Assembly: GCA_038145405.1 (NCBI GenBank)
Contig: JAYQPQ010000002.1
Span: forward strand, 6,535-70,534
Direction of reading: 5' to 3'
Length of the DNA: 64,000 nucleotides
From: Porticoccaceae bacterium
Lineage (GTDB): Bacteria > Pseudomonadota > Gammaproteobacteria > Pseudomonadales > GM7GCV1
Shown here: positions 11,558-25,713 of the stretch, in pieces
How positions within the stretch are numbered: position 1 is the first letter of the stretch
Layout: each line of letters opens with the position of its first letter
The notes under the pieces: model-generated
Databases searched by the model: none
What the model was told of the DNA's origin: nothing
Seen by the model: only the letters and a program-made list of their open reading frames with translations
Position numbers and translations under genes: made by a program

Positions 11558-12229
11558 TTAGGGGATTTGGATATAGCGCTCAAAAATTTCATCGAGATGG
11601 TCGAGAATCAGCGGCTTCAGCGCGATCTCAACCGATGCCAATACCGACCGCAGCTGGGCCGGCGAAATTTGCGCGGCAAAGCGGTCGGCCAAGGGCCGGT
11701 AACTGATATGCCAGGGCTCCGGCGCAATGCCGCCCCGATCGGCCTGATAGGGCTGAAAAAAGTCAAAGTGCTGCAGATGGCGGTCCATCCATTGGGCCAA
11801 AGCGGCAAAGGGTCCGCCGGGCAGATACTCTGCCGTATCCAGCTGCGGTCGCTCGCCCTCGGCCAAGCCGCGCACATCATACACATCCATGTCGGTACCC
11901 CAGTGATGCCGCGATGCACCGGGCAGCGCCGACCAGCGCAGAATGGCGTGCAGCAGCTCCGCTTCGCTCAGCTGCCCGATGTCCAATGGCCGGCCCTGGG
12001 CATCCAGCAACGGGCGGGCGCCGCTGGCTTTGGCGTTCCAGATCATCAATTGGCGTTCAAAGCTGCGGAAGGCGCTGGCCAGGGCCAGCTCGTGGCCCTG
12101 CTCGCGGGCAGCGTCCCGCAATCGCTGCACCTGCGGTGCCACTTCGACATGCAGTTGACCGGCAAATTCGCCCTGGGCAGCCAGGTGCTCGGTGGACTGC
12201 CCACACAGCAGCGAGGTACTGATCGGCAT
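11558..12229 (-). CDS. M15-family zinc peptidase (D-alanyl-D-alanine carboxypeptidase-like)
   Basis: SAFRSFERQ...W and SRHHWGTDMD motifs resemble the VanY/M15B metallopeptidase signature. Confidence 0.75.
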   Translation of the reverse strand: MPISTSLLCGQSTEHLAAQGEFAGQLHVEVAPQVQRLRDAAREQGHELALASAFRSFERQLMIWNAKASGARPLLDAQGRPLDIGQLSEAELLHAILRWSALPGASRHHWGTDMDVYDVRGLAEGERPQLDTAEYLPGGPFAALAQWMDRHLQHFDFFQPYQADRGGIAPEPWHISYRPLADRFAAQISPAQLRSVLASVEIALKPLILDHLDEIFERYIQIP

Positions 12230-12948: not shown

Positions 12949-14144
12949 GAACGTCCCAGCACGGCGGCCATACTCGCTGCCAAGCGATCCATCTGTTCTG
13001 CCCTCGCCCCCGCCAGATTAATGCGGCTGGACTCAAGCATGTAGATGCCAAAATCGCGACGCAAGGTGCGCACCTGCTCCAACTCCAACCCCAGCAAGGA
13101 AAACATGCCCTGCTGACCGGCGATGGAATCAAAGCGGCTATTGCCCAGGTGACGTGTCAGCGCGCTGGCCATCAGCCGACGCAGATCGGCTATACGCAGG
13201 CGCATCTGCTCCAATTCGGCAAGCCAGGATTGGCGCAATTGCTGATCAGACAGCACTTCGGCAACCAACCAGGCACCGTGCGCGGGCGGCATGGAATAGA
13301 CCACGCGGCTGATGCTCATGAGGTTGCTCAGCGTGGCACGCGACTGTTCGGCATTACGCGAAATGCTGATCAGCGCGCCGGCGCGATCGCGATACAATCC
13401 AAAATTCTTCGATGCCGAGTAGGCCAACAACATTTCCGGAACCCGTTCGGCCATCATGCGAAAGCCCAGCGCGTCCTCCTCAAAGCCTGCACCCATGCCG
13501 TGATAGGCGGCATCGACAAAGGGCAGCAGATCGCGCTCCAGCACCAAATCGATCACTTCGCGCCACTGATCCAGACTGAGGTCGGCGCCGGTGGGGTTGT
13601 GGCAGCTGCCATGCAGCAGCAGGATATCGCCGGCCGGAATCTGTCGAATCTGCTCGCACATGGCGGCAAAGTCGAGTCTGGACCGGCGGCGATCGTAGTA
13701 GGCGTAGGTTTGCAGCTGCAGGCCGGCAGCCTTGAGCAGCGGTATGTGATTGCCCCAGGTGGGGTCGCTCACCCAGATGCGGGCGTCCTGCCGAATCGAC
13801 TTCAACAGCTCGGCGGCGATACGCAGGGCAGCCGACCCGCCGGTGGTTTGAATGGTGCCGACGCGCTGGTCATGCAGGCTGGGATGCGATTCGCCTAGCG
13901 CCAGACCGGTGACCAGCGCATTAAAACGCGTGTCGCCGACAACACCCAGGTAGGCCTTGGTGGATTCCTGCTCCAACAGGCGTCGCTCGGCCAGTTTGAC
14001 CGCTTGCATAATGGGCGTGTGGCCGGCTTCATCGCAGTACACCCCAACGCTCAGATCAATCTTGTCGGCACGCGTATCGGCGCGAGCGTCCTGCATCATC
14101 TGCAGAATGGGATCGCCGGGTTGAACGGGCAGGTTTTCAAACAT
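12945..14144 (-). CDS. aromatic/aspartate aminotransferase (class I, AspC/TyrB type)
   Basis: MFENLPVQPGDPIL...DLSVGVY...SASKNFGLYRDRAGAL (PLP-lysine region), 399 aa. Confidence 0.9.
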   Translation of the reverse strand: MFENLPVQPGDPILQMMQDARADTRADKIDLSVGVYCDEAGHTPIMQAVKLAERRLLEQESTKAYLGVVGDTRFNALVTGLALGESHPSLHDQRVGTIQTTGGSAALRIAAELLKSIRQDARIWVSDPTWGNHIPLLKAAGLQLQTYAYYDRRRSRLDFAAMCEQIRQIPAGDILLLHGSCHNPTGADLSLDQWREVIDLVLERDLLPFVDAAYHGMGAGFEEDALGFRMMAERVPEMLLAYSASKNFGLYRDRAGALISISRNAEQSRATLSNLMSISRVVYSMPPAHGAWLVAEVLSDQQLRQSWLAELEQMRLRIADLRRLMASALTRHLGNSRFDSIAGQQGMFSLLGLELEQVRTLRRDFGIYMLESSRINLAGARAEQMDRLAASMAAVLGRS

Positions 14145-14158
14145 GGAGCTGTCCTGAA

Positions 14159-15892
14159 CTAAGGTGCGTCAAGGTCTTCAAAGGCCGTCGAATGCAATCG
14201 GGCATAGGCGCCATTCTTGGCCAGCAATTCCTTGTGGGTGCCGGCCTCGATAATCAGACCCTTCTCCATCACCAGAATCAGGTCGGCACGCTCAATGGTA
14301 GAGAGCCGATGCGCAATGACCAGGGTGGTGCGATCGCGCATGACCACTTCCATGGCCTGTTGAATGTGACGCTCCGACTCGGTATCCAGGGCGGCAGTGG
14401 CCTCATCCAGTATCAGGATGGGAGCGTCGCGCAAAATAGCACGGGCAATGGCCAGGCGTTGGCGCTGGCCACCGGACAGCAATACGCCGTTTTCACCCAC
14501 CAGGGTGTCGTAGCCCTGCGGCATTGCTTCGATAAAATCGTGGGCGTGAGCGGCTCGGGCTGCGGCGATAACCGCCTCGCGTGTTGCACCCTCCGTCGCG
14601 CCATAGGCCATGTTGTTGTGCACGCTGTCGTTAAACAGGACGACATCCTGCGACACCATGGCGAACTGCGCGCGAAGGTTGGCCAGGCGATAGGCTTCGA
14701 TGGGCTGACCGTCGAGAGAAATGCCGCCGCTATAGCCGCCATAAAAACGCGGCAGCAGATTGACCAGTGTAGACTTGCCGCTGCCGGATCGACCCACCAG
14801 CGCCACCATCTTGCCCTGCTCAATTTTAAGGTCGATGCCCTTGAGAGCTGGTTCGGACGCGCCGGGGTAGGTAAAGCGCAGCTGGCAAAATTCGAGTTCG
14901 CCGCGCACGCGCTTGACCTGCAGTTGACCCTCATCCGGTTCGCTGGGTGCATCCAGCATTTCAAAGATGGATTCGGCCGCTGCCACGCCCTTCTGAATTT
15001 GCCCATGCACCTCGCTAATCGAGCGCAACGATTTGGGTAACAGCGCTGCGGCGGTGAGGTAGGCAATCAGCACACCGGCCTCATAGTCTTCGCGCATGGT
15101 CAGCACCGCATACATGACTACCGACATGGCGGAAATCACCAGGAACTGCATGACCGGTGAGTTCAGGGCGTTGGTAAACTCAAACTTGAGGGCCTGACGC
15201 AGGTTTTCCTTGCTGGCCTGCATGAAGCGCTGGATCTCGCGCGATTCGCCGCCGTGAATACGCACAACGCGGTAGCCGGTGACGGTCTCCGAGGTGACTC
15301 GTGCGATGTCGCCCATGGCATTCTGAATGCGGCTACTGAGACGACGCATGCGGCGACCCACCCAGTTCACCAGAAAGCCGATCGCCGGTCCGATGCAAAC
15401 AAAGATCAGGGTGAGCTTCCAGTTGTTGTAAAGCAGGTAGGCAAACAGGGCGATCACCGTCATGCCCTCGCGAAACAGCACGGTGATGGCTTTGGTGGCA
15501 GCGTTGGTCACCATGTTCACATTAAAGGTGATTTTCGATACCAGATGCCCGGTATTCTGCCGATCGTAGTAGCTCGAGGGCAGCAACAGCATGTGGTTGA
15601 ACAAGGCGCAACGCAGGTCGTGCACCACCCCCTGGCCGACAAAGCTGATGAAATAGGTGCCGCCAAAACTGCCGAGTCCGCGCACCATAGCAATGACGAC
15701 GCCGGCCAGGGGAACCTGATAAACCAGGTTTTGCGGTCCCCCCTGCAGGGCCTCGACAAAGTATTGCATCAGAGCAGCGAAGGCGGGCTGGGACAAGGCA
15801 AAGAGCAGGTTGCCACCGATGCTGAGGGCGAACAGTCCGCTGTAGGGTTTGACGTAGGTCAGCAGACGCCGATAGGGGCTGGCTGGTTTCAT
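14159..15892 (-). CDS. msbA: ABC exporter, fused permease/ATPase, MsbA-like lipid A flippase
   Basis: 577 aa. Six-TM exporter domain followed by Walker A GRSGSGKST, signature LSGGQRQR and Walker B ILILDEATAALD. Confidence 0.8.
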   Translation of the reverse strand: MKPASPYRRLLTYVKPYSGLFALSIGGNLLFALSQPAFAALMQYFVEALQGGPQNLVYQVPLAGVVIAMVRGLGSFGGTYFISFVGQGVVHDLRCALFNHMLLLPSSYYDRQNTGHLVSKITFNVNMVTNAATKAITVLFREGMTVIALFAYLLYNNWKLTLIFVCIGPAIGFLVNWVGRRMRRLSSRIQNAMGDIARVTSETVTGYRVVRIHGGESREIQRFMQASKENLRQALKFEFTNALNSPVMQFLVISAMSVVMYAVLTMREDYEAGVLIAYLTAAALLPKSLRSISEVHGQIQKGVAAAESIFEMLDAPSEPDEGQLQVKRVRGELEFCQLRFTYPGASEPALKGIDLKIEQGKMVALVGRSGSGKSTLVNLLPRFYGGYSGGISLDGQPIEAYRLANLRAQFAMVSQDVVLFNDSVHNNMAYGATEGATREAVIAAARAAHAHDFIEAMPQGYDTLVGENGVLLSGGQRQRLAIARAILRDAPILILDEATAALDTESERHIQQAMEVVMRDRTTLVIAHRLSTIERADLILVMEKGLIIEAGTHKELLAKNGAYARLHSTAFEDLDAP

Positions 15893-16671
15893 TACCCGGC
15901 TTCCTGAGCGTCGAGCAAATGGGGGGTCACGCGGAAAACCTCTTCAATGGTGGTATCGCCGCGGGCGACTTTCAGTGCGCCCGCATAGCGCAGATGGTGC
16001 CAGCCGCTGCGTACGGCCTCGCTGCGCGCGGCGTCCAAATCGCTTTGATCCTGGATCTGGTTGCGCTGGCGATCGGGAATCAGAAGCTCATAGATGCCCT
16101 GGCGGCCCCGATAGCCGGTGTTGCGGCACTCCAGGCAACCTCCAGCCGCATAAAGCTGTGCCTGCATCGGCAAAGCGTCGCCAACCAGCGAGCACCAGGC
16201 GCCGGCCTCTGCCGGTACCTGCCGACGACAGGCGGTACAAAGCCGGCGAACCAGGCGCACCTTGCGTCGGGTCATCTGTTCGATACTGCTGACCCAGTCG
16301 GTGCGATCCGGCCTGGCCGTCGCAATCACAATGGCTTTGGCTGTGCTCTCCACACAGAGAATCTGATGGCTCTTGGCAAAGCCAAAGCTCATCACTGCGG
16401 TGGTTTTCTCGACGTCGATGGACAGCGGATTAATACTGACAAAGGGAATCGCCAGACGCTCGGCGAGCCATTGGGTGAGCAGGCCTGAACTGAGGCGTCG
16501 ACTTGGTTGGCGGCGATCGACCAAATCCATGCGACTGAGCGCCAGGATGGGATGCTGTTGGGTCGATCCGCCCTGAGCGCGGCGAGCATCTGCCTGGTCG
16601 ATAATGCCTTCCTCAACCAGGTCACGTACCAGGGAACCCAGCGCAATCTTGGTAGTGGTGGATGCCGTCAC
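15892..16671 (-). CDS. GspE/PilB-family secretion ATPase-like ORF retaining only the N-terminal domain and the C-terminal tetracysteine module (no ATPase core)
   Basis: The N-terminal part resembles the T2SS/T4P ATPase N-domain. The C-terminal part has RLVRRLCTACRR...GGCLECRNTGYRGRQGIYELL...TTIEEVFRVT. No Walker A/B, Asp or His boxes. The stop overlaps the msbA ATG (TAATG). Confidence 0.6.
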   Translation of the reverse strand: MTASTTTKIALGSLVRDLVEEGIIDQADARRAQGGSTQQHPILALSRMDLVDRRQPSRRLSSGLLTQWLAERLAIPFVSINPLSIDVEKTTAVMSFGFAKSHQILCVESTAKAIVIATARPDRTDWVSSIEQMTRRKVRLVRRLCTACRRQVPAEAGAWCSLVGDALPMQAQLYAAGGCLECRNTGYRGRQGIYELLIPDRQRNQIQDQSDLDAARSEAVRSGWHHLRYAGALKVARGDTTIEEVFRVTPHLLDAQEAG

Positions 16672-16737
16672 TCAGGAGCCTTTTTGGTGTAGGCTGGCAT
16701 TGTACCCCCTCGATAAAAATACTGGCTATCTGAGCCC

Positions 16738-17889
16738 ATGCCGAAACGACTACCACCGCTCGACCAGATGCTCGACCGCCTGATTGCCCACCCCTCGGTC
16801 AGTTCGACTCAGAAGGAGCTGGATAGCGGCAACCGCGCGGTCATCGATGAACTCGCCAATTGGCTTGGCGATCTGGGATTTCGTATCGATATCCATCCGC
16901 TTTGCGCCGATGGTCAGAAGGCGAATCTGGTAGCGCGTCTTAGTCAGGGCGAAGGCGGGCTGATTTTTTCCGGCCATACCGATACGGTTCCCTGCGACGA
17001 AAACCTCTGGCAGTCCGACCCCTTCCGTGCCACCCGCACGGACGCCGGGTTCCGTGGCCTGGGTGCCACGGATATGAAGGGCTTTTTCGCCGTCGTGCTG
17101 GAGGCGCTGCAGGATATTCCGCTACATCAGTTACAGCAGCCGCTAACCCTGGTGGCTACGGCAGATGAGGAGTCCAGCTTTGCCGGTGCCAAGGCGCTGG
17201 GCGATCTGGATTTGCCGCGCCAGGCTGGCGTCATTATTGGTGAGCCGACCGATATGCGGCCGGTTAATCTGCACAAGGGCATCATGATGGAAGCTATCCG
17301 GGTCACCGGAGTGGCCGGTCACTCTTCCGATCCAAGCCTGGGCATCAATGCACTTGAGGTCATGGGGGAGGTGCTTGGAGAACTGCTGGCCTTTCGTCAG
17401 CAGCTGCAGTCGACCTACCGCCACGAAGGCTTCAGCCTGCCTATGCCGACACTGAACCCGGGTTGCATTCACGGCGGCGACAACCCCAACCGCATTTGCA
17501 GCAAATGTGAAATCCAGTTTGATCTGCGCCTGATTCCGGGAATGCAGCCAGGGGAACTGCAGCAGGCTATCGATGAACGGCTGCTGCCGATTGCCAAGCG
17601 CTGGCAGGTTCCCATCGAGCGTCGCAGCCTGCTCGATCCCGTGCACGCCTTTGAACAGCCCCCTGAATCCGAACTGGTACGTCAGCTATCGGCGCTCACC
17701 GGCCAAGCTCCGCGCGCGGTAGCCTTCGCCACCGAGGCGCCCTTTTACCAGCAGCTCGGCCTGGACACCCTAATCCTGGGTCCCGGTTCCATCAGCCAGG
17801 CGCACCAAGCCAATGAGATGATCTCGCTCGAGCAGATAGAACAGGGCAAAGATATTTATCAGAAAATCATCAGAAAGTTCTGTTTTTAG
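16738..17889 (+). CDS. argE: acetylornithine deacetylase
   Basis: M20 peptidase family; LIAHPSVSS...ANLVARL...LIFSGHTDTVP...GATDMKGF and 383 aa fit ArgE. Confidence 0.9.
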   Translation: MPKRLPPLDQMLDRLIAHPSVSSTQKELDSGNRAVIDELANWLGDLGFRIDIHPLCADGQKANLVARLSQGEGGLIFSGHTDTVPCDENLWQSDPFRATRTDAGFRGLGATDMKGFFAVVLEALQDIPLHQLQQPLTLVATADEESSFAGAKALGDLDLPRQAGVIIGEPTDMRPVNLHKGIMMEAIRVTGVAGHSSDPSLGINALEVMGEVLGELLAFRQQLQSTYRHEGFSLPMPTLNPGCIHGGDNPNRICSKCEIQFDLRLIPGMQPGELQQAIDERLLPIAKRWQVPIERRSLLDPVHAFEQPPESELVRQLSALTGQAPRAVAFATEAPFYQQLGLDTLILGPGSISQAHQANEMISLEQIEQGKDIYQKIIRKFCF

Positions 17890-17912: not shown

Positions 17913-17940
17913 TTTTAATAAACACTTTGTTTTATTAAAA
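17913..17940. promoter_or_regulatory. AT-only near-perfect inverted repeat (candidate operator) immediately upstream of argA
   Basis: TTTTAATAAAC-acttt-GTTTTATTAAAA: arms of 11 and 12 nt with one unpaired A. It sits in the 50-bp AT-rich argE-argA spacer. A stem with no G:C pairs makes it an unlikely terminator. Confidence 0.35.
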
Positions 17941-19469
17941 TGCGCATCTCTCCCCGGGAGCGCACCATGGATCACTATCTGGCTCAACTGGAAAATTGGC
18001 GCAAGGCACAGAGCGGCAAGAAGGCCCGCAAGGTGTATATGGCCGAACAGCTGGGCTTACCCAGCGTTACCAACTACACCAATTGGCTGCGTCGAGGCAG
18101 CTTGCCGAAGGCCTACATCGATAAGGCGCGTACCTTTCTCGAGCAGCAGGCTAGTGGTCAGTTTGCCTTCAGCACCCTGGACTCCGGCTTTATCAGCCGG
18201 TTTCGCCATGCCGCGCCCTACATTCAGGCACACCGGGATCGGGTGGTGGTGGTGGCCATGCCAGGCGACGCCTTCGATTCCCCGGTTTTCGATCATCTGA
18301 TTCACGATCTCGCTCTGCTCGCCTGTCTAGGAATCAAGCTGGTGATTGTGCACGGCGCGCGCGCGCAAATTGACGCCAGCCTCGAGCGGGCCGGCCTGGT
18401 GACTCGCATTGTCGAACAGATTCGCGTCACCGAGGATGATCAACTTCCCTTGGTGGTGCAGTCGATTAACGATCTGACCACACGTCTGCTGTCTGCCTTC
18501 AGCACCGGCCTGCCAAATACGCCGCGCTTTGGTGTTCAGCTGTCAGTGATGAGCGGCAATTTCGTTGTTGCCCGCCCCATGGGCGTTCGACATGGCGTCG
18601 ATTTTCAGCACACCGGCGTCGTGCGGCAGATCCAAGCGGATCGCATCCGCTCCGCCATCGACAACGGCAATATTGTTATCGTGCCTTCCCTTGGTTACTC
18701 GCTGACCGGCGAGCTGTTCAATCTGGGTATTCAGGATCTGGTGTCTGAGATCGCTATGACGCTCCGCGCTGACAAGCTCATTTGTTTAACCACGGCACGG
18801 GTGATTGGGCAACTCGAATTGGGCGCCGGCACGGTGATAGATGCCGGCGAACTCGAGCGCATCATGAATCACCTGGAGGAGCCTGCAGCACTGCTGCAGT
18901 CGATCACTCCCAAGGTGCTGGGCAGCGGTTGCCGCTGCCACCTGATTGATTTCAATTCGGATGGCGCATTGCTGCAGGAGCTGTTCACACCCGAGGGCCA
19001 GGGCGTGATGGTAGTGGACGAGGACTATCAGAAATTGCGCAAGGCCAACATTGAAGATATCGGTGGCATTCTGGACTTGATTCGCCCGCTGGAGGATCGC
19101 GGCGTGCTGGTCAAGCGCTCACGCGACCTGATCGAGCGCCACATCGACTATTATATGGTGATCGAGTGCGATGCCATGATCGTGGCCTGTGGCGCCATGA
19201 TTCCCTATAGCACGCATACTGCAGAACTGGCCTGCATCGCCACGCATCCTGGATTCAGCAACCAGGGCCTGGGCCGTCGGCTGGTAGACGCGCTGGTAAG
19301 CATGGCGCGCAAGGGAGGCATGAAACGCGTCTTTACTCTCACCACCGAGGGCGAGCACTGGTTTATTGAGCGCAGCTTTCGCGAAGCCAGTCTGTACGAT
19401 CTGCCCGACGAGAAAAAGCAGGCCTACAACTACCAGCGCAACTCCAAGGTGCTGATTCGCGAAATCTGA
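17940..19469 (+). CDS. argA: amino-acid N-acetyltransferase (N-acetylglutamate synthase) with extra N-terminal HTH-like segment
   Basis: The core from FISRFRHAAPYIQAHRDRVVVVAM to YNYQRNSKVLIREI follows ArgA (amino-acid kinase domain plus GNAT). ATG 17967 (MDHYL...) has the best Shine-Dalgarno (GGGAG, 6-nt spacing). Even the latest possible ATG (18039) leaves about 50 extra residues. Confidence 0.9.
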   Translation: MRISPRERTMDHYLAQLENWRKAQSGKKARKVYMAEQLGLPSVTNYTNWLRRGSLPKAYIDKARTFLEQQASGQFAFSTLDSGFISRFRHAAPYIQAHRDRVVVVAMPGDAFDSPVFDHLIHDLALLACLGIKLVIVHGARAQIDASLERAGLVTRIVEQIRVTEDDQLPLVVQSINDLTTRLLSAFSTGLPNTPRFGVQLSVMSGNFVVARPMGVRHGVDFQHTGVVRQIQADRIRSAIDNGNIVIVPSLGYSLTGELFNLGIQDLVSEIAMTLRADKLICLTTARVIGQLELGAGTVIDAGELERIMNHLEEPAALLQSITPKVLGSGCRCHLIDFNSDGALLQELFTPEGQGVMVVDEDYQKLRKANIEDIGGILDLIRPLEDRGVLVKRSRDLIERHIDYYMVIECDAMIVACGAMIPYSTHTAELACIATHPGFSNQGLGRRLVDALVSMARKGGMKRVFTLTTEGEHWFIERSFREASLYDLPDEKKQAYNYQRNSKVLIREI

Positions 19470-19497: not shown

Positions 19498-20106
19498 CTA
19501 TGCAGTTATCTCAAAGCGAAACTGCTCCTGGTGCCGGGTTTCGACTGGCTGCCCGTTGACTCGACGTGGCTGATATTTGAGCCGTGCCGCAGCGCGCTCG
19601 GTGGCGCTGGCGAAGATCCGGTTAGAGCAGGCTTCGACTACGATGTCGCGGGTGGTGCCAGCTGTGGTCACGATAAAGCTCACCGTGCAGTAACCTTCCA
19701 GCCCTCGCTCCAAGGCGGAAGGCGGGTATTCCGGCTGTACCGCAACGATCATCAGCAGATTGCCATCGCCGGCGCCATTAATCACGGGATCAACCGGATC
19801 TACTGGCTCCGGACCAATCGGTTCGAGGTAACCGCCAGGTTCTTTCGGTTCAGTGAAGGTGGGGCGCGTCGGCGGAGGCAGCACCGGTTCCGGAGTTTGG
19901 AGTTCCTCGTCCAGCGGCGGCGGTAGGGGCGGGGAATCCTGCCAAATATCTACCATGCTAAAGGTTTCTATCGGATCCGGTTCACCCAGGTCTACGCTGA
20001 TCATGGCGTTCAACCCCAGAAACAGCAGGAATACGACTAGACTGGCGAGCGTTGCGGCGGGGAAATAGGGAAAATCAACTCTCGGTTTGAAACTCCTGCT
20101 TGTCAT
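19498..20106 (-). CDS. tonB: TonB-family energy transducer, proline-rich-linker paralog
   Basis: N-terminal TM anchor, Pro-rich linker (PPLPPPLDEELQTPEPVLPPPTRPTFTEPKEP) and TonB C-domain (VQPEYPPSALERGLEGYCTVSFIVTTAGTTRDIVV). ATG 20106 is preceded by AAGGAGGG. Confidence 0.85.
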   Translation of the reverse strand: MTSRSFKPRVDFPYFPAATLASLVVFLLFLGLNAMISVDLGEPDPIETFSMVDIWQDSPPLPPPLDEELQTPEPVLPPPTRPTFTEPKEPGGYLEPIGPEPVDPVDPVINGAGDGNLLMIVAVQPEYPPSALERGLEGYCTVSFIVTTAGTTRDIVVEACSNRIFASATERAAARLKYQPRRVNGQPVETRHQEQFRFEITA

Positions 20107-20355
20107 GCTTCTACCCTCCTTAGTTGTCCGGAGCGAAATGCCTAGCGCCACTCAGTCGGCGGACAAGCTGCGTTGCATACCCGGTCGGTGCTTTTACCTC
20201 AAAGTCACTGCTGAGGAGCAGAGCGCCTTGATTCAAGCTACGCCTCTGCCCTCCTGCTGTCCCAATTGTTAATTTATATTAAGCGCCTACTTTCCCGACT
20301 ATCGTAGCGTCAGCCTGGCGATGCCAGAAATGGGCAGCGACTTTGGCCAGGCCAC

Positions 20356-20386
20356 AAAAAAAGGCCGGTCGGTGACCGGCCTTTTT
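20356..20386. terminator. bidirectional rho-independent terminator ending the TonB2-type operon
   Basis: aaaaaaaGGCCGGTCggtGACCGGCCttttt: 8-bp stem flanked by an A-run and a T-run, directly after the TPR gene stop. Confidence 0.8.
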
Positions 20387-20404
20387 GCGTCCAGCTAATT
20401 TGGT

Positions 20405-21760
20405 CTAGCCGTTGATATCCCGGCGAATCGCATCGATATCAATACCGGAGGCGCGCAATTGACGCTCGCGCGCCGCTTCGCTTTCCGTGTAGCGAATCCA
20501 GGTGCGTGCGTACTCGATGCTGTCGGCATCGCGCACGGCACGGAACAAGCGCAGGGCTTCATCGTAACGATACATGTAAAGCAGGGAGATGCCGGCTTGC
20601 AGACGCACTGCATCGGGCTCTTCCAAACCGCCCTTTTCCAGAGCTTCCATTGCCGCTTCGTAGCCTTCCCCGTAGCGCTCCATGGAGTTATAGATATTGG
20701 CCAGACGGGCAAAAGACTCGCCGTTTTCTGCCAGCTGAGCTGCACGCTCCATCCAGGTTAGTGCCTTATTGAAGTCATGCGCGGTGTAATAAGCCTGGCC
20801 GATGATTTGAAAATTCTTTTCATTCTCTTCGATCAGGCCGTCTTCCATGCCCTTGATGATGACTTCTGCACCCTGTACAGGGGCACCTTTGGACATATAC
20901 ATAAAGCCCAGGCCCAGTGCCTGACTCTCTGAGGTCAAGCCACCTTGCAGCCAGGCCAGGTCATAAGCGGCCATTTGCTGGTCGATCTGCTCGAGTTCGG
21001 CGTACATACCACCCAGTTCTCGCCAGTAGCGGACATTGGGATAATAAACAATCAGCTTTTTGAGAATCTCAATAACCTTGGGAAAGTTATTGCGGGTGTA
21101 GTAGATGGTGCGCTGAATGGCGTACCAGTTCTCCTGACCGATTTCACCGATATCCTCGCGCATGGTGATGGCGCGCTCGATATAGCTCAATGAATTGTCG
21201 AAGTCTTCCAGGCTGTAGTAGATGGTTCCGATCAGCGCATAGTCATTGGCGCCGATAATGGTCTGGTAGGACATCCACTCGAGATAGAGGTCCAGTGCCT
21301 GCTGGTACTCCTCGTCAATCATGTGCAACTGGGCCAGCGTCTTGATGGTACGAACCACCAGTGGCGCGTTGGCCTCAGGCTCGTCGATCACGCGACGGTA
21401 ATAGCCTTTGGCCTGTTGATTATCTTCCAACAAGTAGTAGATAAAACCGTAAAGATTATAGACCTCAGCCTTTTCGTGGCTGGGCAGACGATCCACGTTG
21501 ACCTTGCGAATTTCAACCAGCGCTGCTTGCGGATTGGGTTCCGGTACCGGCCCACCCTCCACTTCGGGTTCTGGCGCCAGGAAAGCGCGTACCGGATCCA
21601 GTGCTCTTGCCGTGGTCGGGCTCAAGGCACGAACGCGGGCGGTTTCGACATCTTCAAAGCGGCGCTCTTCTTCCTGAGCCTGCAAGGGCAGACTCGTTAC
21701 CGCCGAGATAGCCATCAGGGCGGCTACGAAGGTAGCCTGTAGCTTAAAGTTAATGCCCAT
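20405..21760 (-). CDS. secreted tetratricopeptide-repeat protein, last gene of the TonB2-type cluster (TtpD-like)
   Basis: Signal peptide (FVAALMAISAVTSLPLQAQ) followed by repeated TPR-like A/Y/L patterns. Occupies the position of TtpD in Vibrio TonB2 systems. Confidence 0.75.
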   Translation of the reverse strand: MGINFKLQATFVAALMAISAVTSLPLQAQEEERRFEDVETARVRALSPTTARALDPVRAFLAPEPEVEGGPVPEPNPQAALVEIRKVNVDRLPSHEKAEVYNLYGFIYYLLEDNQQAKGYYRRVIDEPEANAPLVVRTIKTLAQLHMIDEEYQQALDLYLEWMSYQTIIGANDYALIGTIYYSLEDFDNSLSYIERAITMREDIGEIGQENWYAIQRTIYYTRNNFPKVIEILKKLIVYYPNVRYWRELGGMYAELEQIDQQMAAYDLAWLQGGLTSESQALGLGFMYMSKGAPVQGAEVIIKGMEDGLIEENEKNFQIIGQAYYTAHDFNKALTWMERAAQLAENGESFARLANIYNSMERYGEGYEAAMEALEKGGLEEPDAVRLQAGISLLYMYRYDEALRLFRAVRDADSIEYARTWIRYTESEAARERQLRASGIDIDAIRRDING

Positions 21761-21799
21761 ATCTCCCTCTAACTCCTCATCAACTGACGCGCAAAAACC

Positions 21800-22429
21800 T
21801 TAGCGCTCGTCAGCCATCTCAAAGGTGAATTTATACTGGTGCGCGACCTCGACGGGCCGGCCGTCGATGATACGCGGGCGATACTTGAGTTTTTCGGCAG
21901 CCCGGATACTGTCACGCAGGAACACCGAGTTGGTGCATTCCACTTCGACGATGTCAGCGGTGGTACCGGCGGTGGTAATGGTAAAGCCCACCACGCAGTA
22001 ACCCTCCAGGCCACGCTCGGCAGCGCGCGCCGGGTAATTGGGCTGAATCGCCACCAGCGGAATAATATCGCCATCGCTAAATGCGGTGCCAATGTTGATT
22101 TCCACACTGGTATCGGCACGTGCCACAGAAATATTGACCGAATCCATGCTGGCATCCAGCTCCATGGTGATATCCGGAATTTCCGGCTGTTCTTCCGGCT
22201 CTTCAATTTCCTCGACCTGGCGCTCCTTGACCTGGTCTTCAATCACCTCATCTTCCTGCCAGATATCACCGATGTTGATACGCTCGGTTTCCTCCGGTTC
22301 TTGCAGATCGGCATTGATCAACGCCTGCATCAGAAACAGGAGGAAAAAGGTCACCACCACCGCCAACAGGGCGGAGGGGATCAGCAAAAGGTAGCCAGGC
22401 TGGCCTGAACCATTGAGCTTCATTATCAA
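21800..22429 (-). CDS. tonB: TonB-family energy transducer, acidic-linker form (TonB2-like)
   Basis: TM anchor, Glu-rich linker (QEPEETERI...EDEVIEDQVKERQVEEIEEPEEQPEIPD) and TonB C-domain (IQPNYPARAAERGLEGYCVVGFTITTAGTTADIV). ATGA overlap with exbD. Confidence 0.85.
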   Translation of the reverse strand: MIMKLNGSGQPGYLLLIPSALLAVVVTFFLLFLMQALINADLQEPEETERINIGDIWQEDEVIEDQVKERQVEEIEEPEEQPEIPDITMELDASMDSVNISVARADTSVEINIGTAFSDGDIIPLVAIQPNYPARAAERGLEGYCVVGFTITTAGTTADIVEVECTNSVFLRDSIRAAEKLKYRPRIIDGRPVEVAHQYKFTFEMADER

Positions 22430-22827
22430 CCCTCCTCTGCAGAAATTTGCACGAGTTCAACGCCCACATCCTTGGCTGCATCTGCTACGGCTGCAATCTG
22501 GCGCACCTGGGCATCCTGGTCGGCTTGAATGACCAGTGCACCCTTAGGGTTATCTGCATAAAGCGCGGCGATGCTCGTGCGCAGGAAGCGGGGGTCAATC
22601 TGCTCGCGGTTGATCCAGATATTGCTGTTGGCGTCGATAGCTACCAGCATGCTGGGCTTCAAGTCCTCAGCGTTACCCGCCAGCGGCTTAAGCACGTCGG
22701 TTCCCGGCAGCTTAATAAAGGTCGCCGTCACGATAAAGAAAATCAGCATGATAAAGACCACGTCCAACATGGGCGTCAGGTCGATTTGCTGTTCTTCGGG
22801 TGAACTGGTTTGCCTTCTCTGTCTCAT
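22426..22827 (-). CDS. exbD: biopolymer transport protein ExbD/TolR
   Basis: 133 aa. IDLTPMLDVVFIMLIFFIV TM segment followed by an ExbD periplasmic domain. Confidence 0.9.
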   Translation of the reverse strand: MRQRRQTSSPEEQQIDLTPMLDVVFIMLIFFIVTATFIKLPGTDVLKPLAGNAEDLKPSMLVAIDANSNIWINREQIDPRFLRTSIAALYADNPKGALVIQADQDAQVRQIAAVADAAKDVGVELVQISAEEG

Positions 22828-22850
22828 ATTCGTTTGACCTCAAAGTCGCC

Positions 22851-23381
22851 CTAATGATCCATGGTCATATGATCTTCGAGCAGTGCAGTTTCCTTGTCGG
22901 CGATACGGTTCAGGTAGGTGTCGGCAAAAACGCCGGCGATGGCTACCACCATGCCCGACAGTGTCGGGATGGTAGCGCGGAACACACCGCCAGCCATTTG
23001 GCGGGCGTCGCCGCCACCGGTGATGGCCATGACCTCAAATACGGAGATCATGCCTGTTACCGTACCCAACAAACCGAAAAGGGGAGCTACAGCCACCATG
23101 GTTTTGACCATGGGCAGACTCGCGCGCACCTTTTCACTGGCTTCGGAAATCAACTTCTCACGGACCTTGTGAGCGAACCAGGAGGTGCGCTCGGCGCGCG
23201 TCTCCCAGATAGAAATGGCAAGGTTCACGTCAGCTTGCACGCCGCCGCCCTTGTAGTACCAAATGCGCTCGACAATCAGCGTCCACATGGCAAAGGCCAG
23301 GCCAGCGATGGCCCAGAGCACCGGGCCACCCATTTCCATGTAGCGTGAAATCGCTTCAAGCGAATCGTAGAACCACAACAT
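22851..23381 (-). CDS. exbB: MotA/TolQ/ExbB proton channel protein
   Basis: 176 aa with three TM helices. APLFGLLGTVTGMISVFEVM is a typical ExbB/TolQ motif. Confidence 0.9.
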   Translation of the reverse strand: MLWFYDSLEAISRYMEMGGPVLWAIAGLAFAMWTLIVERIWYYKGGGVQADVNLAISIWETRAERTSWFAHKVREKLISEASEKVRASLPMVKTMVAVAPLFGLLGTVTGMISVFEVMAITGGGDARQMAGGVFRATIPTLSGMVVAIAGVFADTYLNRIADKETALLEDHMTMDH

Positions 23382-23383
23382 GG

Positions 23384-24751
23384 TTACTTGGCCTCAGCCC
23401 GCTCCGCCACGATACCTGCCGACTGCTCATCCAGAATATGGATGATGCGCATGGCGCGGCTATTGAGCAGCGTGTGCAGAAGCACGGTGGGGATAGCCAC
23501 CACAAGGCCCAGTACGGTGGTTACCAGAGCCTGGGAAATACCACCAGCCATGCCCTGTACGTCGCCGGCACCGAAGAGGGTAATGCCCTGGAACACGATG
23601 ATCATACCGGTCACCGTACCCAGCAGACCCAGCAGGGGCGCCACTGCGGCAATAATCTTGATCACATTCAGCCAGGACTCGATGCGCGGACGCTCCTTAA
23701 GGATGGCCTCACCCAGCTTCAGCTCCAGTGTTTCTACATCGGCGCTGCGGCTGTTTTCGTAAACCTTCAGCACGCGACCCAGCGGGTTGTCTTCGTTGGC
23801 AACCTTGGATTTGAGCTGGCGACTTACCTTGCCGCTGATGGTCATCAGGTCGAACAGACGAATCAGCGAGATGATGACGGCAATGACGAACAATCCGGTA
23901 ATCACGTATCCCACGTAACCGCCCTGATGCCATTTCTCAACCAGGGTCGGCGTGGCAATGATGGCGCGCAGGAAGCTGCCGCCATTGGGGCCGGTCGGGT
24001 CTAAGCCCACGCGGGTGAAGCCACTGCTTTCGTCTTGCAGGTCGCTGGCACCGCTCAGATAGCGGCCGGCCGGCTGGCTCGGCAGCACAGAAATGAGCTT
24101 GGTGCCCGGATCGTAAGCCAGGTATTCGCCCTCGGAAAGGAGGTTGTAGTTGCCCACGCGAATCACTTCGCGCTGCTGTTGCTGGCCATCGGGGGTCACC
24201 ACGGTAGCGTTAAAACGCACCACTTCGCTGGAGTAAATAATTTCGTCCAGGGTTTCGGCCCAGAGGCGCTGTACTTCGGCAACCGTCGGCAATCGGGTGG
24301 TACTGGACATCTTCTCGATCATGGGATCGATAAAGTCCGTACGCGCAGGAAATTGCGCAGAGGTGATGGACAGATCGATGGTTTCGCGCACGTCACCGGC
24401 AAAGCCAGTCAGATGACCAAAGAGTTCGCGCAGGGTACCCAGACGCTCGGAGAGCTGCTGAGAACGGTCGGCAATGGCGATTTCATTGGCGTCGTACTGA
24501 TCTTTCAACTGCTCGCTGCGGCGCTCGAGGGCGGCGCGATCGGCGTTAGCTTCCTGCAGCAGGCGCTGCTGGTTGGCACGATTCTGGCGAAACTCGGCTT
24601 CGCGTTGGCGTAATTGTTGGTCCTGGATCTCGGTCGCTGAGCGAACGATAGCCATCAGTTCTTGCAGGCTGGCAGCAGCCGGCTGTTCCTGGGCCTGTAG
24701 CGACCCGGAGACCAGTACGGCAGCAATCGCAGTTAGAATTAACTTCTTCAT
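23384..24751 (-). CDS. large MotA/TolQ/ExbB-family protein with N-terminal periplasmic coiled-coil domain (TtpC-like)
   Basis: 455 aa. Signal peptide, long soluble domain, then a C-terminal ExbB-like module (APLLGLLGTVTGMIIVFQGI). This is the architecture of TtpC in TonB2 systems. Confidence 0.85.
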   Translation of the reverse strand: MKKLILTAIAAVLVSGSLQAQEQPAAASLQELMAIVRSATEIQDQQLRQREAEFRQNRANQQRLLQEANADRAALERRSEQLKDQYDANEIAIADRSQQLSERLGTLRELFGHLTGFAGDVRETIDLSITSAQFPARTDFIDPMIEKMSSTTRLPTVAEVQRLWAETLDEIIYSSEVVRFNATVVTPDGQQQQREVIRVGNYNLLSEGEYLAYDPGTKLISVLPSQPAGRYLSGASDLQDESSGFTRVGLDPTGPNGGSFLRAIIATPTLVEKWHQGGYVGYVITGLFVIAVIISLIRLFDLMTISGKVSRQLKSKVANEDNPLGRVLKVYENSRSADVETLELKLGEAILKERPRIESWLNVIKIIAAVAPLLGLLGTVTGMIIVFQGITLFGAGDVQGMAGGISQALVTTVLGLVVAIPTVLLHTLLNSRAMRIIHILDEQSAGIVAERAEAK

Positions 24752-24754
24752 TTC

Positions 24755-25531
24755 TTACCCCTTAGGCGCCGCGATGGGCAGGCTCATGATATCGATGGCA
24801 GCTTGCTGCTTGGCGATGCGCAAGCCATTGGCGACTGCACTTTTGTAGGCGCCGGATGGCAACTGCTCCCACTCCTCGGTGGTGGCGTTCCAAGCACCGG
24901 TGATGGCCTGATCCTTGGTTTGGTACATCAGCGCGATTCGGCCGACGCGCAGAATATCGACTTCTAGTTCGATGCCATTGATGACCACGGTATCAGAATA
25001 GTTTTCAATATTTTTGCCGTAGTCGGTTTCGATGCGATAGGCCTCGAGAATCTGACGGAATTTCTCGGCGGTGGTCAGGTCAGAGCGCTCCATGTTGGCG
25101 GCCAGGCGCTCGACGCGCTCGCGGCGCTCTTCGAGACTGAAGGGCAGATCCATTTCGACAAACTGGGCGAGGGCATCAACCATTTGCAGCTGCAGCGGTA
25201 CCAGGTTCACTTCCATGCTGGTGGCTTCATCGATGGACTGTGCCAGATCGGCCAGCTGCTGAACCTGATCGGCGATCTGCAGTTCGAGCTGAGCGTTATA
25301 AACGCGCAGGTTTTCGATCTGCTTCAGCACTTGTCGGTAGTCGACAATGACCTGATCGGTTTCGTTGGCGATGGCATCAACGCGTTGCTGCGAGTCGGCG
25401 GCTTGTTGAATGCGCGCACTGTCTGCTTGCGTGACGCCATCGACTGACTGGGCGGAAGCCTGACCCATGAGCGCCAGGCTCAGGGCTGCTCCGGCCAGGG
25501 AAGCGAAATATTTCAGTCGCATATGATTCAT
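24755..25531 (-). CDS. periplasmic coiled-coil protein, DUF3450/TtpB-like, first gene of the TonB2-type cluster
   Basis: Signal peptide (LKYFASLAGAALSLALMGQASAQ) and heptad-rich sequence. Start ATG 25531 is preceded by GAGGGA. The ORF-track start at 25570 is probably over-extended. Confidence 0.7.
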   Translation of the reverse strand: MNHMRLKYFASLAGAALSLALMGQASAQSVDGVTQADSARIQQAADSQQRVDAIANETDQVIVDYRQVLKQIENLRVYNAQLELQIADQVQQLADLAQSIDEATSMEVNLVPLQLQMVDALAQFVEMDLPFSLEERRERVERLAANMERSDLTTAEKFRQILEAYRIETDYGKNIENYSDTVVINGIELEVDILRVGRIALMYQTKDQAITGAWNATTEEWEQLPSGAYKSAVANGLRIAKQQAAIDIMSLPIAAPKG

Positions 25532-25713
25532 GATTCCCTCGGTACTAAAATTACTGAATATTGATCTCACTGCTCATTCCTCTGACGAGGCATGGCACCA
25601 GATTTTTTAAGGGTGACGAATTGCTCGCCCTCTGCGCTTGACGCGCAAAGGAAGCCAGATAGCGTAAATTGAAAATTGAATAACTTCTACCCTGACCCGG
25701 ATGTTAGCACTAT

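Follow-up and report, generated by a model that had tools for sequence, protein, structure and literature searches.

We examined an open reading frame (ORF) of 259 codons in a 64-kb stretch of contig JAYQPQ010000002.1 of a Porticoccaceae bacterium (hereafter the window, meaning the whole stretch analysed), where it lies between a divergently transcribed argE and msbA, the gene for the lipid A exporter. The ORF and msbA are read on the reverse strand and share one base, the TAA stop of the former (15892-15894) and the ATG of the latter (15890-15892) forming the sequence TAATG. An earlier note, made from the letters alone, had singled out this ORF as a GspE/PilB-like protein lacking its ATPase part and standing apart from other secretion or pilus genes. 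Consistent with the latter point, the annotated neighbours, covering about 0.5-44 kb of the window, are all non-pilus and non-secretion genes (biosynthetic, TonB/ExbB, two-component and others), and no second T2SSE-type ATPase is encoded within the 64-kb window. The coordinates of the features discussed below are collected in Table 1.

Profile comparisons recover only the two ends of the secretion ATPase family in the 259-amino acid (aa) protein. Pfam MshEN (formerly T2SSE_N) matches residues 74-141 with profile positions 2-69 of 90 (E 3e-7; 30.6 bits against a cutoff of 23.1), and Pfam T2SSE matches residues 139-247 with positions 276-370 of 370 only (E 1e-14), such that a partial MshEN and the last quarter of T2SSE are all that survive. 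The NCBIfam models for TfpB, PilB and GspE likewise match in two pieces, one at the N terminus and one at the far C terminus, while the last ~115 residues of the solved PilB, GspE and PilF chains in the PDB align to residues 138-249. Within the C-terminal piece, the CxxC...CxxC tetracysteine zinc module is complete (C145-x2-C148 and C179-x2-C182) and aligns to the zinc modules of PilB and GspE. Alignment with full-length relatives places the missing segment, of ~330 residues, between ...RRKV and RLVRRLC..., and the N2 domain (the RPQDGR-containing region) falls in this deleted stretch, which corresponds to orthologue residues ~149-477. Searches with regular expressions found no Walker A (GxxGxGK[ST]), Asp box, Walker B or His box in the 259-aa protein, whereas the orthologue on a related contig, L030, has all four: GPTGSGKT at residue 350, EDPIE, DPDIIMVGEIRD and TGHLVLSTLH. 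Hence, the composition read by the earlier note from the sequence—an open frame that fuses the N-domain directly to a zinc module with both cysteine pairs intact, lacks every defining ATPase motif and overlaps the start of msbA—is borne out. Because all nucleotide-binding motifs are deleted, the product cannot hydrolyse ATP or act as a motor ATPase.

Structure prediction, which the note had suggested, gave an AlphaFold2 model with two confident parts (mean predicted local distance difference test score, pLDDT, 86.7; predicted template modelling score, pTM, 0.59), and a Foldseek search with this model recovered the C-termini of PilB, GspE and PilF together with the N-domains of MshE, PilB and XpsE. 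Compared with the complete GspE/PilB/PilF ATPases (T2SSE PF00437; PDB 5TSG, 5TSH, 5ZFR, 4PHT and 1P9R), the window protein shares the C-terminal 112 residues, including the zinc module, and a truncated N1/MshEN-type N-terminal fold, but is devoid of the N2 domain and the RecA-like core. Its residues ~10-140 also share the fold of isolated MshEN/GSPII N-domains (MshE, 5HTL; PilB-N with PilZ, 7LKM; PilF GSPII, 8PDK) at Foldseek E 4e-4 to 1e-2; however, the identity is only 14-21%, and the window domain ends at profile position 69 of 90. The cyclic di-GMP (c-di-GMP) motif of MshEN domains spans 24 residues, RLGxx[LVI][LVI]xxG[LVI][LVI]xxxxLxxxLxxQ, and a regular expression for this pattern matches neither the window protein nor its intact orthologues. 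The model and the Foldseek matches confirm the homology of both folds rather than the stability of their fusion, a stable mini-protein and a remnant being expected to look alike in such a prediction.

With respect to the family, the GspE/PilB-like label of the earlier note was right as to the secretion ATPases at large, and the NCBIfam scores point to a narrower, TfpB-like affinity. The best family of the 259-aa protein is TfpB (NF053534), with 193.9 bits in two pieces versus 81.8 for PilB and 75.9 for GspE. The intact 594-aa orthologues described below match TfpB from end to end (model positions 6-8 to 583 of 584) with 800-808 bits, versus 507 for GspE and 490 for PilB. Against the TfpB equivalog cutoff of 850 bits, the window protein falls far below and the intact orthologues slightly below; hence, judged by these scores, the latter are better called TfpB-like than certified equivalogs, with TfpB leading as the best family by about 300 bits. 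In Acinetobacter baylyi, TfpB serves as a second extension ATPase of type IV pili and is phylogenetically distinct (Ellison et al. 2021, PMC8213720); it is encoded by an orphan gene that does not lie beside pilC and has homologues in other Gammaproteobacteria (PMC8213720; review PMC11656802). The gene studied here is similarly an orphan, with no pilC, pilD or other pilus genes adjoining; it differs in that some 329 residues, and with them all the ATPase motifs, are gone from the window copy. In annotation, the ORF should accordingly not be named a GspE/PulE-family ATPase, but be marked as a tfpB-like remnant with an internal deletion.

Table 1. Features of the argE-msbA region of the window, with the evidence for each; aa, amino acids; nt, nucleotides.
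Feature	Position	Strand	Basis
tfpB-like gene with internal deletion; 259 codons, GTG start, TAA stop	15892..16671	-	ORF list and sequence; Pfam and NCBIfam match both model ends only; orthologous by position to the 594-aa genes in L030, L031 and L033
Retained N-terminal part, aa 1-138; N1/MshEN-type domain without its last strand and helix	16258..16671	-	Pfam MshEN, Foldseek; aligns to orthologue residues 11-148
Deletion junction; single R-L-V (CGC CTG GTT)	16249..16257	-	Two R/K-L-V triplets in intact orthologues, separated by 329 codons
C-terminal part kept after the deletion, aa 139-250; last core strand, zinc module with four cysteines, C-terminal helices	15922..16257	-	Pfam T2SSE, PDB PilB/GspE; cysteine codons verified
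Nine-codon tail HLLDAQEAG plus TAA, past the orthologue stop position; includes AGGAAG, Shine-Dalgarno-like, for msbA; last letters TAATG	15892..15921	-	3'-end alignment
msbA (lipid A exporter), 577 aa; start codon overlaps the remnant stop	14159..15892	-	NCBIfam TIGR02203 MsbA_lipidA, 735.5 bits (cutoff 602)
argE, divergent; marks conserved synteny	16738..17889	+	NCBIfam NF003474, 514 bits; same arrangement in L008, L013, L030, L031 and L034
Conserved argE-remnant intergenic region, 66 nt	16672..16737	-	75-81% identical to relatives versus 33-42% at msbA four-fold sites (proportion of synonymous differences, pS, > 0.7)
Sigma-70-like site TAGCCA-18-TACAAT	16728-16699	-	Promoter scan; sole promoter-like site on either strand in 14000-17000
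GAGGGGG	16705-16711	-	Precedes the ATG
ATG, annotated start in relatives	16698-16700	-	Gene calls in relatives
10-codon upstream ORF MPAYTKKAPE; its TGA overlaps the GTG start (GTGA)	16668..16700	-	1-nt deletion in an A-run versus the ATG frame of relatives

The ORF itself has few close counterparts: it is the sole member (n=1) of its own 90% cluster, its only full-coverage match in a word-index search is itself, the other matches there being confined to the C-terminal ~43% of the query, and a scan of GTDB species-representative genome contigs with the 259-aa protein returned distant C-terminal matches only, at 33-43% identity, and no close relative. Relatives were reached instead via a search with MsbA. 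A metagenome scan yielded a contig (L013) whose MsbA is 84% identical to that of the window over residues 1-294, and the protein database added another five MsbA proteins that are 79-82% identical, those ranking after them being ~59% identical (Halopseudomonas, Pseudomonas and Zooshikella). The G+C content of the window is 60%, versus 51-53% in the relatives with the 79-82% identical MsbA (L030-L035).

Several of these relatives possess a complete gene at the same place. Contigs L030 (798 kb) and L031 share the gene order of the window, with genes for a TPR protein, argA, argE and, divergently, an intact 594-aa MshEN+T2SSE gene and msbA, followed by genes for an aminotransferase, a histidinol phosphatase and VanY, then cysE, the H+-PPase gene and dxs. 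In both, the upstream flank is in view and the intact gene lies between argE and msbA. On the shorter contig L033, where tfpB-msbA-aminotransferase is in view, an intact 594-aa gene directly precedes msbA, and L032 has at least the last 189 residues of the gene, including Walker B and the His box. The intact 594-aa orthologues carry every ATPase motif. A more distant full-length relative, P0122 on contig L008, is 43% identical and again divergent from argE (58% identical to the window argE). The window ORF is thus, by position, orthologous to an intact gene of the tfpB-like kind. The earlier note had reasoned that full-length genes at this locus in close relatives, combined with neutral evolution of the window copy, would make the latter an ordinary pseudogene; the full-length genes in L030, L031 and L033 do point to an ordinary remnant, and the question of neutrality is taken up with the substitution rates below.

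Two further candidates for degraded copies were rejected. P0122 (L008:790-2423) had been considered as C-terminally deleted; instead, it has an in-frame TAA in its conserved C-terminal region, after which homologous coding continues, on a contig of 2.6x coverage, suggesting an error or a decaying copy. L029, a Logan contig nearly identical to L030, was entertained as a frameshifted pseudogene, with two single-A losses in A-runs (L029:770 and L029:1015), one of them inside the Walker A codons, splitting the gene into three frames. These shifts are probably sequencing errors because the restored translation equals the L030 protein except for about one N-terminal residue.

The intact orthologues also provide a precise view of how the short form arose. 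In L033, the N side reads ...MTRRKV RLV VAAP..., with the R-L-V triplet coded as AGG TTG GTT (aa 149-151), and the C side reads ...GVLAQ RLV RRLC..., with the triplet coded as CGA TTG GTT (aa 478-480), 329 codons from the first; L030 has KLV and RLV at these two places. The window has ...MTRRKV RLV RRLC..., with one triplet. The junction fits an in-frame deletion of ~987 bp (329 codons) between direct repeats of 6-9 nucleotides (nt). Thus, the microhomology-mediated deletion at a shared R-L-V that the earlier note had proposed finds direct support in L033, which has the RLV on both sides. The deletion disregards domain boundaries: the last strand and helix of N1, the whole of N2 and the RecA-like core are removed, and the protein restarts at the last core strand.

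Given that the genome apparently derives from environmental sequencing, and that one relative contig (L029) has probable homopolymer errors, the short form might be an assembly or sequencing artefact in which the middle of the gene was collapsed. We consider this highly improbable. Two contigs assembled separately from other sequencing runs (L001 and L002) are 100% identical to the locus over 4.1-4.6 kb across the junction; therefore, the short form cannot have arisen as an artefact of a single assembly, the same identity meaning that these contigs contribute no population variation. Moreover, the junction repeat of at most 9 nt is far below assembler k-mer sizes, and comparable real deletions are present in relatives, one of them in two strains.

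Sister lineages have lost the gene independently. Contig L013, which is close to L030 (MsbA 97% identical), has a 210-aa ORF between argE and msbA (L013:1462-2094) with the junction ...LLSHWVA/LKGVLAQRLVRRLC.... This junction (WVA/LKG) formed between GG-GTN-GCC repeats that are visible in L029, and a 2-nt deletion near the 3' end shifts the frame of the last 16 codons. L013 keeps the C-side LKGVLAQ, which is gone in the window, and is without the N-side residues 73-138, which the window keeps; therefore, neither deletion derives from the other. For the parts shared by L013 and L030, omega is 0.14 at a synonymous divergence (dS) of 0.42, and the L013 deletion is therefore recent. A still shorter form is found in L034 (5817-6014) and L035 (1175-1372), two strains with 18 single-nucleotide polymorphisms in 4.9 kb: a 65-codon ORF made up of the first 33 codons, about 20 codons of the C-terminal region and a tail reaching 14 nt into msbA. 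In a neighbour-joining tree of MsbA, the window is sister to (L034, (L030, L031), (L032, L033)), a clade mixing intact and deleted forms. From this position of the window, it follows that the intact gene is ancestral and was lost at least three times. As the junctions in the window, L013 and L034/L035 all differ, the short architecture is not conserved among the relatives.

Nor did a broader search reveal a family of short forms: in an exhaustive phmmer search of 1.84 billion representative proteins, only one of the 8879 matches, P0135, spans both parts of the query. The best matches are proteins of 570-600 aa, to which the query aligns in two blocks, residues ~8-141 to their residues ~9-145 and ~139-250 to ~465-600. 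P0135 (262 aa; L010:240-1028) was rejected as a conserved short form, for it has three different internal junctions and lies in an unrelated context upstream of glnE-waaF. This TfpB-like ORF on a metagenome scaffold consists of four in-frame pieces of a full-length gene, namely an N-terminal piece of ~107 aa, an N2 piece of ~35 aa, a His-box piece of ~9 aa and the zinc module, and directly precedes lipopolysaccharide core genes of the glnE-waaF-waaC type; as its scaffold contains N-runs, it could be a real, multiply deleted remnant or a product of assembly.

What the remnants do share is their relationship to the flanking sequences. All three retain the conserved 5' region that separates the gene from argE, and the junctions of the window and L013, as well as the first junction of L034, are in frame. 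All three remnant ORFs end at or beyond the start of msbA, with overlaps of TAATG in the window, TTGA in L013 and 14 nt in L034, as against none of the four intact genes, whose stops lie 9-14 nt before it (Fisher's exact test calculated by hand, p = 1/35). In the window, the TAATG overlap exists because the codon at the orthologue stop position is CAG (TAA in L033 and TAG in L030). The msbA start codon itself is ATG in the window versus TTG or GTG in relatives. The sigma-70-like site TAGCCA-18-TACAAT of the 5' region is found in L030 and L034 too, and in L034, where it lies 198 nt ahead of msbA, no other site of this kind separates msbA from argE; a consensus promoter scan of this kind is weak evidence. 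A terminator-like hairpin with a T-rich tail inside the ORF (16449-16466, reverse strand) was dismissed as probably meaningless, the number of such matches in the region being below chance expectation.

The 5' region bears on the start codon as well. In the intact orthologues, the start assigned by gene callers is an ATG that precedes the position of the window GTG by ten codons (MPIYTKNGSD-VTA...). In the window, GAGGGGGTACAATG is preserved, but the A-run after codon 7 is shorter by one A. The standing of this indel as a second lesion is ambiguous, as it would require the relatives to start truly at the ATG. TACAAT overlies the ATG; if it is a real -10 box, the ATG would be untranscribed, and the indel would then fall in the 5' untranslated region, as it would if the GTG is the true start. 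With the GTG start, the intact protein would have 584 aa, exactly the length of the TfpB model.

Taken together, we conclude with high confidence that the ORF is what an internal deletion has left of a tfpB-like pilus motor gene, a remnant that is dead as an ATPase. That it came from one in-frame deletion and that its survival was shaped by the expression of msbA is, as a whole, the probable explanation, and we hold with moderate confidence that msbA expression is what would have kept the remnant in its tidy form. The 259-aa polypeptide is most likely without a function of its own. The ancestor of the clade had a tfpB-like gene between argE and msbA, and a single ~987-bp deletion between the R-L-V repeats fused residue ~148 to residue ~478 in frame, with the loss of the end of N1, N2 and the RecA-like core. 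In the scenario we favour, the gene would have been dispensable in the clade and lost repeatedly. As msbA is apparently expressed from the conserved tfpB 5' region, the deletions that survived may have been those that kept this region and translation up to the msbA start, avoiding a polar loss of the essential gene. Remnants upstream of an essential gene can be subject to such constraint through Rho-dependent polarity and through translational coupling at stop-start overlaps. Such a polarity constraint would explain both the open frame and the stop overlapping the msbA ATG. The likeness to polarity-constrained operon pseudogenes as a general concept lies in the retained 5' signals, the in-frame junction and the stop overlapping the msbA start; the difference is that the constraint here would have to be read from three independent remnants. 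The earlier note had offered a remnant kept for the msbA expression signals as one of two possibilities: its remnant half is upheld by the intact relatives and the RLV repeats, and its msbA half is suggested by these three remnants.

A number of observations weigh against this explanation. Synonymous sites are saturated versus every relative (pS 0.71-0.87), and there is therefore no dN/dS estimate for the window branch. The nonsynonymous divergence (dN) of the retained N- and C-terminal parts relative to that of msbA is 2.2-2.65 in pairs involving the window versus 2.4-3.0 in intact pairs, with overlapping bootstrap intervals; thus, of the two things that the earlier note had named as marks of an ordinary pseudogene, full-length relatives are at hand and neutral evolution is not seen. 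Tajima relative-rate counts versus 13 distant outgroups gave no excess of window-specific changes, and 31 of the 33 positions conserved in >=70% of these outgroups are kept in the window protein, which further has both cysteine pairs intact and is modelled by AlphaFold2 with confidence in both parts. The view of the genome is of only 64 kb when it comes to pilus machinery or another tfpB/pilB. The 5' region is shared with the divergent argE, and its conservation may serve argE rather than msbA. Finally, the polarity argument draws on three remnants only and was formulated after seeing them.

Some of these points fit better with the second possibility of the earlier note, a real short adaptor protein. 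Here, the 259-aa product would be a functional, ATPase-less mini-protein of N1 and the zinc module, exapted as a docking or regulatory module that might bind a ligand or, at the pilus platform, rival PilB/TfpB in recruiting partners. In addition to the open frame, the four cysteines, the 31 kept positions, the lack of a nonsynonymous excess over the intact orthologues and the confident model, it is favoured by the isolated N-domains of MshE, PilB, PilF and XpsE, which fold alone and bind ligands or partners in solved structures, and by L013, where an N-terminal piece and the zinc module have independently stayed in frame. However, the three remnants differ in junction and content (259, 210 and 65 aa), and L013 has lost the alpha/beta half of its N-domain entirely, its C end being frameshifted as well. 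No such family is found among the 1.84 billion representatives, the junction falls within the two domains and not at a boundary separating them, and in full-length PilB/GspE structures the C-terminal helices would pack on the RecA core that is missing here. The unaccelerated rate is equally explained by a recent deletion. Because the architecture is not conserved and there is no short-form family, the adaptor is disfavoured, and we regard a functional mini-protein as unlikely. The corresponding claim about selection, that the polypeptide was kept after the deletion as an N1 docking and zinc module regulating or blocking the pilus platform or another partner, with the unaccelerated change reflecting purifying selection, is in our estimate a long shot. 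The rate results fit a very recent deletion and continued constraint on the polypeptide equally well; by our own estimate, given the widths of the intervals, a neutral period exceeding about 0.1 synonymous substitutions per site would probably have been noticeable.

A recent deletion could also have left a very recent pseudogene under no constraint at all, its open frame, in-frame junction and TAATG having arisen by chance and msbA having an independent promoter. An in-frame deletion has a prior chance of one in three, random stops are few at 60% G+C, and the rate tests show only recency; the weakness of promoter scans as evidence and a possible role of argE in the 5' conservation fit this account too. 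Against chance stands the recurrence of the pattern, all three independent remnants having kept the 5' region and an ORF that extends to the start of msbA, while the intact genes stop 9-14 nt upstream. As only 198 nt separate the 5' region from msbA in L034, there is little room for another promoter there. We therefore think a chance origin of these features rather improbable, and retain the remnant shaped by msbA expression as the preferred explanation.

The wider neighbourhood offers some additional observations. The argA product (window 17940-19469) has 509 aa here and 500 aa in relatives; it matches N-acetylglutamate synthase models from residue ~82 on, and its ~80 N-terminal residues (MRISPRERTMDHYLAQLENWRKAQSGKKARKVYMAEQLGLPSVTNYTNWL...), which are unexplained, are apparently of conserved length across the clade. 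Beyond it, on the reverse strand, lies a TonB-dependent energy-transduction cluster (window 19498-25570) coding for two TonB_C, a TPR, two MotA/ExbB-family (one of 455 aa) and DUF3450 proteins; a similar ExbB-ExbD-TonB-TPR block adjoins argA in L034. On the other side of msbA, a 223-aa ORF without an NCBIfam match (window 11558-12229) is situated between the histidinol phosphatase gene and cysE, at the place where relatives have the gene for VanY (D-Ala-D-Ala carboxypeptidase family).

What stands out in evolutionary terms is the recurrent, ORF-preserving erosion upstream of msbA. In a small gammaproteobacterial clade, the orphan pilus motor gene that precedes msbA has decayed on at least three separate occasions, and in every case the 5' region and an ORF that runs into msbA were left. 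If this pattern holds, msbA in these organisms would be expressed from the tfpB 5' region, and the locus would be a natural example of an essential downstream gene shaping the decay of a dispensable upstream gene.

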